Below are positions 61,459-63,939 of a stretch of 64,000 nt of DNA, in pieces. The notes beneath the pieces are model-generated. The model worked only from the letters and a program-made list of their open reading frames with translations, was not told the DNA's origin and made no database searches. The position numbers were made by a program, and so were the translations under genes. Positions within the stretch are counted from its first letter, which is position 1; every line of letters starts with the position of its first letter. Location of the stretch: the NCBI RefSeq assembly GCF_056712565.1, contig NZ_CM160072.1; one strand, written 5' to 3'.

Positions 61459-63939
61459 ATGGGTATTCAGAATTTCGACCACTCACACCACAAGCTCAAA
61501 ATTCGCGGCCTGAAAAGCCCGGTGGACGTGCTGACTTTTACAGGCCACGAACAGCTCAGCTCACCCTTCCGCTACGACATTCAGTTTACCAGCAGCGATA
61601 AAGCCATCGCGCCGGAATCGGTGCTGATGCAGGACGGCGCATTCAGCCTGACGGCACCGCCCGTACAGGGAATGCCGGTACAGACTGCCCTGCGCACCCT
61701 GCACGGCGTCATTACCGGCTTTAAACATCTCTCATCGTCACAGGACGAAGCCCGTTACGAAGTGCGCCTTGAACCCCGTATGGCGCTGCTTACCCGCAGC
61801 CGCCAGAACGCCATCTACCAGAACCAGACGGTGCCGCAAATCGTCGAAAAAATCCTGCGCGAGCGACACCAGATGCGCGGTCAGGACTTCGTGTTTAACC
61901 TCAAAAGCGAATACCCGGCCCGCGAACAGGTGATGCAGTATGGCGAGGACGACCTGACGTTTGTCTCACGCCTGCTGTCGGAAGTGGGTATCTGGTTCCG
62001 CTTCGCCACCGACGCCCGGCTGAAAATCGAAGTTATCGAATTTTACGACGACCAGAGCGGCTATGAGCGCGGGCTGACGCTGCCGCTTCGCCATCCTTCT
62101 GGGCTGTTTGATGGTGAAACGGAAGCCGTATGGGGGCTGAACACGGCATACAGCGTGGTGGAGAAAAACGTCACCACGCGGGACTACAACTACCGCACCG
62201 CCACAGCGGAGATGATGACAGAGCAGCATGACGCCACCGGGGGCGATAACACCACCTACGGCGAAGCCTACCACTATGCTGACAACTTCCTGCAAAAAGG
62301 CGATAAAGAGGCAGCGGAAAGCGGCGCGTTTTATGCCCGTATCCGCCACGAACGCTACCTGAATGAACAGGCCATTCTCAAAGGCCAGAGCACCAGTTCA
62401 CTGCTGATGCCGGGGCTGGAAATCAGGGTTCAGGGCGACGACGCGCCAGCGGTGTTCCGCAAGGGTGTGCTGATTACCGGCGTGACGGCCAGCGCGGCGC
62501 GTGACCGCAGCTATGAACTGACGTTCACGGCGATACCCTACTCAGAACGCTACGGCTACCGCCCGGCGCTTATCCCCCGCCCGGTAATGGCCGGCACGCT
62601 CCCGGCGCGGGTCACCAGCACGGTGAAGAACGATATTTATGCCCATATCGACAAGGACGGGCGCTACCGGGTCAATCTCGACTTTGACCGCGACGCATGG
62701 AAACCGGGTTATGAAAGCCTGTGGGTACGCCAGTCGCGCCCGTATGCGGGAGACACCTACGGCCTGCACCTGCCGCTGCTGGCGGGAACGGAGGTCAGCA
62801 TCGCCTTTGAGGAAGGCAACCCGGACCGACCTTATATTGCAGGCGTAAAACACGACTCGGCGCACACCGACCATGTGACCATTCAGAACTACAAGCGCAA
62901 CGTACTGCGTACCCCGGCCAACAACAAAATCCGGCTGGATGACGAACGCGGGAAGGAGCATATCAAGGTCAGCACCGAATACGGCGGCAAGAGCCAGCTA
63001 AACCTCGGTCATCTGGTGGATGCCGGGAAACAGCAGCGCGGGGAAGGCTTTGAACTGCGTACCGATATGTGGGGCGCAGTGCGGGCGAAGAAAGGGATTT
63101 TTATCAGCGCCGATGCGCAGGACAAGGCGCAGGGTCAGGTTCTGGATATGACTGATGCACTAGCTCAACTTCGCGAGGCACAGTCTTTGGTAGAGGCACT
63201 ATGTAGTGCTACTGAAGTGGCAAAGGCTGAACTTGCAGATTTGCAGACTCAGAAAGTAATGATGTCAGAGGCTCTGGAGGAACTCAAAAAATCAGCGATG
63301 TTGCTTTCGGCTCCGGAAGGAATAGCTCAGGTTACGCCAAAAAGCCTGCAGCTGTCCGCAGGAGAAAACATCATTAGCACCAGTGGAAAAAATTCAGATT
63401 TCAGCGTGTTGAAGAAGTTTACCGTTGCTGCTGGAGAAACGGTAAGTCTGTTTGCCCAAAAGCTGGGGATAAAAATTTTTGCCGGTAAGGGAAAAGTAGA
63501 GATTCAGGCGCAGGGAGATGAAATGTTGCTAGATGCGCTGAAAGATATCCGCATCAGCAGCAGTGAGGGGCGAATCCTTATTAGCGCAAAAAACGAAATC
63601 ATTCTGACCAGCGGCGGCGGATATATTCGTATTGGTGATGGTACGGTGGAATGCGCAGCCCCAGACAAGATCATAGAGCGTGGGGCCGTATGGCAGAAGT
63701 TCAGCGGCCAGAGCATCAGTCAGGCGATGCAACAGTGGGATTCTGCTGATTTTGCTGTCACACCAGAAATACTCTGGCAACAAACTGGCAAACCTGCAAA
63801 AAATCAAAAGGTACAGGTCACACGGGGTGATGGCTCAGTGGTGGAAATGACCACCGATGAACAAGGACGATTGCCCATACAGTCAGGGCTTTTCGTTGAG
63901 TCAATAAAAATTGATCTGCCGGATAGTCAGGAAAACTGA
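61459..63939 (+). CDS. vgrG: T6SS spike protein VgrG with a compositionally distinct C-terminal region
   Basis: 826 aa; VgrG-like N-terminal and central region. The 3' ~800 bp (from about 63150) is markedly lower in GC than the upstream part. Confidence 0.88.
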   Translation: MGIQNFDHSHHKLKIRGLKSPVDVLTFTGHEQLSSPFRYDIQFTSSDKAIAPESVLMQDGAFSLTAPPVQGMPVQTALRTLHGVITGFKHLSSSQDEARYEVRLEPRMALLTRSRQNAIYQNQTVPQIVEKILRERHQMRGQDFVFNLKSEYPAREQVMQYGEDDLTFVSRLLSEVGIWFRFATDARLKIEVIEFYDDQSGYERGLTLPLRHPSGLFDGETEAVWGLNTAYSVVEKNVTTRDYNYRTATAEMMTEQHDATGGDNTTYGEAYHYADNFLQKGDKEAAESGAFYARIRHERYLNEQAILKGQSTSSLLMPGLEIRVQGDDAPAVFRKGVLITGVTASAARDRSYELTFTAIPYSERYGYRPALIPRPVMAGTLPARVTSTVKNDIYAHIDKDGRYRVNLDFDRDAWKPGYESLWVRQSRPYAGDTYGLHLPLLAGTEVSIAFEEGNPDRPYIAGVKHDSAHTDHVTIQNYKRNVLRTPANNKIRLDDERGKEHIKVSTEYGGKSQLNLGHLVDAGKQQRGEGFELRTDMWGAVRAKKGIFISADAQDKAQGQVLDMTDALAQLREAQSLVEALCSATEVAKAELADLQTQKVMMSEALEELKKSAMLLSAPEGIAQVTPKSLQLSAGENIISTSGKNSDFSVLKKFTVAAGETVSLFAQKLGIKIFAGKGKVEIQAQGDEMLLDALKDIRISSSEGRILISAKNEIILTSGGGYIRIGDGTVECAAPDKIIERGAVWQKFSGQSISQAMQQWDSADFAVTPEILWQQTGKPAKNQKVQVTRGDGSVVEMTTDEQGRLPIQSGLFVESIKIDLPDSQEN

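Follow-up and report, generated by a model that had tools for sequence, protein, structure and literature searches.

The window analysed here is a stretch of 64,000 nucleotides (nt) of contig NZ_CM160072.1 (assembly GCF_056712565.1). Near its 3' end it carries vgrG (tssI), the gene for the spike protein of a type VI secretion system (T6SS), in which base composition and homology to other alleles both change abruptly at about codon 560. The gene belongs to a T6SS-1 island whose 5' half occupies 52.2 to 64 kb of the window and adjoins mltA and a tRNA-Met array. Before vgrG, the gene order is tssB, tssC, tssK, tssL, tagL (OmpA family), hcp and clpV (tssH); in genomes identical to the window, a PAAR gene, tssM, tssA, tssF, tssG and tssJ lie 3' of vgrG. 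Over its last 25 kb, the window was 100% identical to the chromosomes of ZJ3920, S88, MS7163, APEC O2:K1 and other Escherichia coli strains, and showed few-base differences from those of UTI89, IHE3034 and APEC O1 (APEC, avian pathogenic E. coli). These matches identify it as E. coli chromosomal DNA of the ST95/UTI89/S88 type (ST, sequence type), with a T6SS-1 cluster. Sequence beyond the window was read in ZJ3920, where the L001 coordinate plus 45458 gives the window coordinate.

The vgrG reading frame stays open to its end, as the earlier note on this DNA had it, and its product is identical to WP_000512742.1 of ZJ3920, UTI89 and IHE3034. The Pfam domains Phage_GPD (amino acids [aa] 30-346, E 1e-58), Phage_base_V (aa 398-463, E 1.8e-08) and T6SS_Vgr (aa 484-582, E 2.8e-33) were found in it, and aa 14-508 scored above the cut-offs of both TIGR01646 (462 bits versus 121.8, E 2.6e-138) and TIGR03361 (251.9 versus 186.35). 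The protein also matched PDB entries 2P5Z, 4MTK and 6SJL, the first of which, an N-terminal fragment of an E. coli VgrG, aligned to aa 1-478 with few differences. Positions 61459-63939 encode a VgrG/TssI spike protein within a T6SS gene cluster. Two minus-strand open reading frames (ORFs), 63504-63716 and 63529-63807, were set aside as mechanical ORFs within the coding region.

A synonymous composition step inside vgrG

Measured in 300-nt intervals, the GC content fell from 0.57-0.64 (61500-63200) to 0.45-0.52 (63100-64000). The fall was almost wholly synonymous: GC at third codon positions (GC3) dropped from about 0.72 to about 0.45, with the values at first and second positions (GC1 and GC2) nearly constant. 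The core of the gene (nt 1-1680) had a GC of 0.592 and a GC3 of 0.727, compared with 0.478 and 0.453 for the 3' 801 nt (Fisher exact p = 6e-14). The maximum-likelihood change-point in GC3 fell after codon 558, with a 2-log-likelihood support interval of 63091-63154. Its log-likelihood ratio (LLR) was 28.6, the maximum in 1000 permutations was 9.0, and a control scan of clpV gave 1.2. The genes tssK, tssL, tagL and clpV (GC 0.59-0.62, GC3 0.69-0.71) resembled the 5' part of vgrG. The earlier note had described a GC-rich 5' part like tssK to clpV, followed from about 63150 by AT-richer sequence with different codon choices; both statements are borne out by this highly significant step, and the coordinate was correct to about 20 nt.

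Since the mean GC of the whole window is only 0.512, it is the T6SS backbone that is the GC-rich outlier. The 3' end of vgrG (0.48) lies slightly below that mean and is the shallow start of a far AT-richer stretch, the genes 3' of vgrG having a GC of 0.35-0.46. On the other side of the island, tssB and tssC (52282-54379) have GC contents of 0.44 and 0.51, respectively, versus 0.59-0.62 in the remaining T6SS backbone; the island backbone is therefore also compositionally non-uniform.

Homology to other alleles ends at the composition step

Positions 61459-64000 were used as a megablast query against 5,426 complete E. coli genomes. The gene was found in 1,304 of them and was covered at full length in only 184. 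The remaining matches sampled (about 1,100 genomes, about 94% identity) ended at query nt 1682 or 1692 (window 63140-63150). When the 3' 786 nt of vgrG were searched alone, they were present in 184 to 191 of the 5,426 genomes, as a single chromosomal copy in every case.

The break was also seen in an alignment of six alleles from five strains, scored in 60-nt bins. Five of the alleles showed identities of 0.90-0.97 through 63138 and of 0.37-0.57 from 63139, and the sixth, that of MS1170, remained at 0.92-1.00 past this point. The last bases common to the alternative alleles (Table 1) fall in codons ~561-565, between ...AQGQVL and DMTDAL.... At the protein level, identity to the alternative alleles was far from uniform: it amounted to 96-98% over the core and to 30-35% over the C-terminal 266 aa, with 36-38% in DUF2345 and 12-27% in the final 77 residues. 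Composition and homology change within about 20 nt of each other.

The core is itself a mosaic, in which identity among alleles switches from one 60-nt bin to another between 0.80 and 1.00. The same alternation, 0.80 and 1.00, marks the first 120 nt of vgrG, and 61200-61600 (the clpV 3' end plus the vgrG 5' end) forms a further mosaic patch, with 0.70-0.91 identity to MS1170 beside a clpV body (59200-61100) at 100%.

Table 1. Features of vgrG and of the variable region that follows it (window positions, except where L001 is given)
Feature	Position	Strand	Basis and remarks
vgrG (tssI) ORF	61459..63939	+	826 aa, ATG start, intact; ORF list and annotation of identical genomes
Backbone part of vgrG, gp27/gp5-like spike core, aa 1-560	61459..63138	+	GC 0.59, GC3 0.73; ~94% nt identity to other alleles; mosaic blocks inside
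Junction	63133..63153	+	Composition change-point 63133; last shared bases 63140-63153; aa 562 = residue 575 of VgrG1 of enteroaggregative E. coli (EAEC)
C-terminal extension, very likely cassette-borne, aa 561-826	63139..63939	+	GC 0.48, GC3 0.45; colinear with 6SJL_A
Two predicted alpha-helices, aa ~564-588 and 594-611, joining gp5 needle to DUF2345 beta-helix	63148..63291	+	AlphaFold2, module residues 4-28 and 34-51, predicted local distance difference test (pLDDT) score 52-70
DUF2345, aa 604-749, beta-helical spike prolongation	63268..63705	+	Pfam PF10106, E 3.3e-48
C-terminal tail domain, aa 750-826, most allele-divergent part	63706..63936	+	Alignment to 6SJL 777-821; pLDDT 82-88 (module residues 211-250)
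Predicted Tle4-family lipase gene, first 14 codons (MTSTMHMDRADKNK)	63959..64000	+	19 nt after vgrG stop; cut by window end; 'esterase/lipase family protein' in identical genomes
378-aa protein gene, between PAAR and tssM	L001 22056-23192 (window-equivalent 67514-68650)		
Variable tssM 5' end	L001 23202-23516 (window-equivalent 68660-68974)		GC 0.41

The variable region extends into tssM

In ZJ3920, vgrG is followed by the esterase/lipase gene, Tli4-family immunity sequences, PAAR, the gene for a 378-aa hypothetical protein, tssM and tssA. The low GC spans five genes beyond vgrG and stops abruptly about 105 codons into tssM. The resulting interval, referred to below as the cassette, measures about 5.8 kb (read in identical genomes); its GC is 0.35-0.48 and its GC3 0.25-0.45, between flanks with a GC of 0.59-0.61 and a GC3 of about 0.70-0.73. 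Homology to the alleles of strains 9, Ecol_448 and 2011C-4315 resumed at one base, L001 23517, 315 nt into tssM. Residues 1 to ~105-115 of TssM are hypervariable and unalignable between cassettes, and from ...RYGPFWRRKVRLLLVTGEPE... on the proteins are about 99% identical. The 3' border of the cassette in tssM is as sharp as the border in vgrG. The earlier note had proposed an exchange of the 3' end of vgrG together with what lies downstream; this is supported, for a unit that reaches to about tssM codon 105 and is larger than that note could see.

No direct or inverted repeats were found in a search of the cassette borders. A site-specific mobile element was rejected as a candidate, given that only chance-level matches of 16-25 nt flank the cassette and that insertion sequence elements occur in the cassette of few strains only.

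Also present in the exchanged unit, in every case, are PAAR, an uncharacterised protein of ~380-480 aa that matches no family, and the first ~105 residues of TssM. PAAR, inside the low-GC unit, is 52% identical (aa) between the Tle4 cassette and the Tle3 cassette described below. The 378-aa protein gave no match to a Pfam, NCBIfam or PADLOC family; its counterpart in the same place of the Tle3 cassette shares only about 22% identity with it, and homologues with 24-59% identity follow PAAR in the Tle4 cassettes of other genera.

Farther downstream, a second low-GC insert (GC 0.30-0.42) separates tssA from tssF (L001 28164-31070; window-equivalent 73622-76528). This insert, presumably another toxin-immunity cassette, holds two small ORFs and the gene for a PAAR-domain protein of 525 aa; strains 9 and MS1170 either lack it or have a different one.

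Alternative cassettes at the same locus

The alternative alleles carried other cargo at this site. Strain 9 has the order VgrG (820 aa)-Tli3-Tle3-PAAR and 2011C-4315 has VgrG-SLT. In Ecol_448 there are three tandem units, namely VgrG-M23 peptidase, VgrG-DUF4123-DUF3304-Tle1 and VgrG-SLT transglycosylase. All these cassettes, and the second Tle4 allele found in MS1170, lie at the same mltA/tRNA-Met T6SS-1 locus.

The extension of the MS1170 VgrG is 98.9% identical (aa) to that of the window, but its lipase and immunity genes are only ~70% identical at the nt level (lipase, 69% aa), and tli4 is present in two copies. Along the locus, identity to MS1170 was 100% in the clpV body, ~93% in the clpV end and vgrG core, 96-100% in the extension, ~70% in the lipase gene and 90-100% from PAAR onward. 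The drop occurs ~15 codons into the lipase gene (window ~63990-64000), and the ~70% level continues through the immunity gene(s) (L001 18544-21344). Such a pattern entails at least three breakpoints in 3 kb and is that of a nested, second-order effector-immunity swap inside the cassette. The contrast between the clpV body on the one hand and the vgrG core and lipase gene on the other hints at a module distribution out of step with strain phylogeny.

A Tle4-type lipase and its immunity gene

The lipase gene, of which the window contains the beginning, encodes a full-length protein of 589 aa in UTI89 and IHE3034. This protein has a PGAP1-like match at aa 227-262, around the nucleophile motif, and matches PDB 4R1D_A (E 4e-44), with which it has the stretch VILVTHSMGGLVAR in common. 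We take 4R1D to be the Pseudomonas aeruginosa Tle4-Tli4 complex. The complex is also reference 37 of PMC9860674. Because of the PGAP1-like and 4R1D_A matches, the gene is predicted to encode a Tle4-family phospholipase. With the Tli4 immunity genes that come after it, an effector and its immunity function, the kinds of genes to which the earlier note had directed attention, were found downstream of vgrG. For Tli4, a phmmer search against PDB sequences gave no match, and the family assignment is that of the Prokaryotic Genome Annotation Pipeline. NCBIfam and PADLOC scans of the lipase, Tli4 and the VgrG extension returned no family.

ZJ3920-type genomes lack one of the two tandem copies of a 10-nt repeat, AAATTGGTGG, at L001 19642 (window-equivalent ~65100). 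This deletion splits the lipase gene into ORFs of 388 and 203 aa and parts the nucleophile motif from the C-terminal part, while UTI89 and IHE3034 have kept both repeat copies and the intact gene. For its part, tli4 is split into 277 and 97 aa by a 1-nt insertion (L001 21022, ~66480) in ZJ3920, UTI89 and IHE3034, and is intact in SW07099. On account of these splits, read in relatives beyond the window end, decay of the toxin-immunity pair seems to be under way in the ST95-like lineage.

Architecture of the VgrG extension

Residues 562-809 of VgrG were colinear by phmmer with residues 575-821 of 6SJL_A (E 6e-37), the VgrG1 of EAEC, and 6SJL_A was the best Foldseek match of a model of the extension (E 2.9e-8). 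The model was built with AlphaFold2 from a 43-sequence alignment, as a monomer of a trimeric fold. Besides two helices and beta structure, it has a small beta domain at the C terminus that is predicted well. Two such helices have been described in the VgrG proteins of EAEC and of adherent-invasive E. coli (AIEC) (PMC9860674). The tail domain gave, in addition, a weak match to Pfam CarboxypepD_reg (E 2.5). By these comparisons, the swapped part appears as a homologous, anciently diverged version of one architecture (helices, DUF2345 and a small C-terminal domain), with no novel domain. An evolved VgrG, that is, one with a fused toxin domain, was rejected: aa 561-826 contain no Pfam, NCBIfam or PADLOC toxin domain and align to the non-toxic VgrG1 extension.

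The extension and Tle4-like genes are linked across genera

Relatives of the extension were taken from GTDB species representatives (79 loci), and the downstream genes were scored within 3.5 kb. A search of a large protein database with the extension returned mostly partial proteins, and the identities of core and extension were taken from the genome loci instead. A Tle4-like gene lay downstream in 44 of the 52 loci with a full-length match to the extension, compared with 1 of the 16 loci matching DUF2345 only (Fisher p = 1.5e-8). Among the loci with at least 52% extension identity, the figure was 24 of 25. The Tle4-like gene usually begins 40-300 nt after the vgrG stop, and in the loci with a full-length match it is mostly followed by a Tli4-like gene. 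Linked loci were found both in Enterobacterales (Pantoea, Serratia, Photorhabdus, Providencia, Erwinia and Gilliamella) and in Burkholderiales (Burkholderia, Paraburkholderia, Cupriavidus, Ralstonia and Collimonas).

The extension type and Tle4-like genes thus co-occur across genera, in agreement with the view taken in the earlier note that VgrG C termini specify the cargo. The spike cores on which this extension type sits are 43-49% or 60-64% identical to the core of the window; as these are different classes, the unit of extension and lipase must have been recombined onto different spikes.

In most genera examined at these loci, GC3 was lower in the C-terminal module of VgrG than in its own core, as in Enterobacter (0.69 in the core, 0.49 in the module) and Acerihabitans (0.83 and 0.54). 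The GC step found here therefore seems to be general to DUF2345-type VgrGs.

DISCUSSION

We consider it very likely that vgrG is a chimera, composed of a GC-rich backbone (codons 1 to ~560) and the beginning of an exchangeable low-GC cassette with Tle4 cargo. The backbone encodes the gp27/gp5-like spike and belongs to the GC-rich part of the E. coli T6SS-1 island. Codons ~562-826, with the two helices, the DUF2345 beta-helix and the small C-terminal domain, make up the first 0.8 kb of the cassette; its remainder comprises the genes for the Tle4-family phospholipase, the Tli4 immunity protein(s), PAAR and the 378-aa protein, and tssM up to about codon 105. In the E. coli population, this locus would be occupied by any of several alternative alleles, of which the cassette is one. 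We infer that such cassettes are exchanged by homologous recombination: donor DNA would be taken up by transduction or conjugation and would then recombine through the conserved flanks. Crossovers in these flanks, the vgrG core and tssM, would account for two sharp borders whose position does not change among the alleles compared.

The extension would serve as an adaptor built into the spike. The tip would carry it in three copies that bind the lipase encoded alongside, and the lipase would be expelled together with the spike. An extension that binds its own cargo would have to travel with that cargo. That the lipase physically docks on the extension, with the tail domain as the candidate site, is suggested by analogy with VgrG1-Tle1 and VgrG-Tle3 and by published results on DUF2345. 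In EAEC, the VgrG1 extension binds Tle1 via a transthyretin (TTR) domain, with further contacts to the needle (PMC9860674; PDB 6SJL, 6SK0), and the Tle3 of AIEC is reported on under the heading 'Tle3 Interacts with VgrG' (PMC9860674). DUF2345 types have been found to correlate with the downstream toxins (PMC10673891).

Several results weigh against this interpretation. As the module has a lower GC3 in most genera, the GC step alone is weak evidence for a recent import and may be a standing property of the module. The AlphaFold2 model of the extension is modest (pLDDT 67.5), with low global TM-scores. The tail domain is probably a TTR-like beta-sandwich, but the TTR-like Foldseek matches are weak and local (HIU hydrolase 3QVA: 47 columns, root mean square deviation ~3 Å, E 0.4-0.8). 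As to the linkage, seven full-length extensions with ~40% identity (Pseudomonas, Yersinia, Citrobacter and others) and one with 72% identity, from Enterobacter, had no Tle4-like gene, and the nearly identical extension of MS1170 is paired with a lipase only 69% identical. In view of these exceptions and of the MS1170 lipase, the specificity of the extension for its cargo is family-level at best.

The strongest of the alternatives, although in our judgement an unlikely one, is concerted evolution, in which the 3' ends would be old and diverged, the cores would have been homogenised by gene conversion among vgrG copies, and the break would be the edge of a conversion tract. The mosaic blocks of the core are what conversion would leave, the clpV-end/vgrG-start patch is another of the kind, and strains with three tandem vgrG copies, with cores 94-95% identical to that of the window, contain the templates for it. 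Most strains examined, however, have a single vgrG, with the same flanks and a different cassette, and an equally sharp border exists in tssM, a gene without a close paralogue as donor. Nor would conversion of the core account for a cassette composition unlike both backbone and host, or for the unit of extension and Tle4 on unrelated core families in other genera. Core conversion and cassette swapping are not exclusive: conversion among vgrG paralogues probably homogenises the core as well, and so probably helps to create the homology that swaps use.

Somewhat less probable still is a purely structural role of the extension, which would fit the spike tip to the co-encoded PAAR or set the length of the spike, its association with the lipase being a matter of linkage only. 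PAAR does vary between cassettes within the same low-GC unit, one extension type tolerates lipases only 69% identical to each other, and some extensions of similar length lack a downstream Tle4. Against this, the loss of similarity in the last ~60-80 residues coincides with the loss of the Tle4 neighbour (the contrast between full-length and DUF2345-only matches given above), the homologous EAEC extension contacts its effector directly in a solved complex (6SJL; PMC9860674), and DUF2345 is needed for toxin delivery elsewhere (PMC10673891). That no exchange took place, the step reflecting amino-acid content or relaxed codon selection in the repetitive beta-helical region of a continuously inherited gene, would agree with the low module GC3 of most genera as an intrinsic property, but we rejected it as sole cause and regard it as highly improbable, since the shift is confined to GC3, coincides within ~20 nt with the complete loss of nucleotide homology to ~1,100 conspecific genomes, and continues as low GC through five more genes to an abrupt stop inside tssM.

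The chimera that we favour has a close counterpart in VgrG1 of the EAEC Sci-1 system. The order tssB, tssC, tssK, tssL, tagL, hcp, clpV, vgrG, effector is the same, the two VgrG proteins are colinear throughout (E 3e-203), with an alignment that passes the junction and extends through residue 821 of VgrG1, and a phospholipase gene adjoins vgrG in both. The cargo differs, being Tle1 (DUF2235) in EAEC and a predicted Tle4 (PGAP1-like, related to 4R1D) here. Moreover, the extension has diverged (28-36% identity over the parts aligned by Foldseek), and binding has been shown for the EAEC pair, whereas for the pair described here it is predicted by analogy.

T6SS-1 clusters of E. coli have phospholipase and immunity genes in common, but of different families: Tle1 in EAEC, Tle4 in APEC and Tle3 in CFT073 and AIEC (PMC9860674). 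In the VgrG of the AIEC LF82/CFT073 type, which is paired with Tle3-Tli3 (PMC9860674; strain 9 in this work), the locus is the same, the core is 96.6% identical (aa) and the helices, DUF2345 and tail are all present. It is unlike the window allele in that the extension is 35% identical, the immunity gene precedes the effector gene and the lipase belongs to another family.

In UTI89, a VgrG identical to that of the window is followed by the 589-aa esterase/lipase and Tli4 fragments, and the Tle4-Tli4 locus of APEC and other extraintestinal pathogenic E. coli (ExPEC) is very probably the same locus as the one described here. The accession YP_542179 is presumably one of UTI89. It is given for Tle4/Tli4 in PMC6730261, and Ma et al. 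2014 is cited both there and in PMC5874247. For the APEC T6SS1, experiments have validated Tle4/Tli4 as an effector and its immunity partner, with antibacterial activity that depends on T6SS1 and Hcp1 (PMC5874247). The literature passages covered deal with Hcp1 dependence, and the VgrG extension and the recombination junction go unmentioned in them. A further difference from the published pair is the lipase gene of ZJ3920-type genomes, split by the 10-nt deletion.

In Vibrio cholerae, tap-1 and vgrG have 3' ends that co-segregate with effectors, show a GC step and are exchanged by recombination (PMC4557670, PMC5361080). The modules of tap-1, vgrG-2 and vgrG-3 share with the present locus a conserved 5' and a variable 3' part, a sharp intragenic junction, the GC step, the co-segregation of the 3' end with effector and immunity genes, and an exchange ascribed to homologous recombination. 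Unlike here, the chimeric gene of the Vibrio aux-1 cluster is a separate DUF4123 adaptor, and in the large cluster the 3' end of vgrG-3 is itself the toxin, whereas the variable part in the window would be a non-toxic internal adaptor. The step is large here, amounting to 0.27 in GC3, and the just over 3% published for Vibrio refers to total GC, so that the two values are not directly comparable. The downstream border inside tssM is also peculiar to the locus described here. With its variable 3' part, its distinct composition and the alternative modules found at the same site, the locus fits an exchangeable T6SS effector-immunity module in the sense of Unterweger and Kirchberger. The principle of the swap and the Tle4 module were already known; what is added here is the precise position of the borders and a count of the linkage across genera.

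The co-variation of PAAR, the uncharacterised protein and the TssM N terminus with the cargo could be functional and not mere hitch-hiking. In that case, the uncharacterised protein and the TssM N terminus would connect the membrane complex to the loaded spike through an interface specific to the type of cargo. We regard this idea as rather unlikely, and to our knowledge no T6SS-1 loading component of this kind has been described.

The locus offers a base-pair view of how E. coli would re-arm one secretion machine, recombination in vgrG and tssM swapping the tip of the spike, the toxin and the antidote in one step. The type of cassette would decide which neighbours a strain kills or survives, and this bears on the ecology of ExPEC and of the ST95 lineage.

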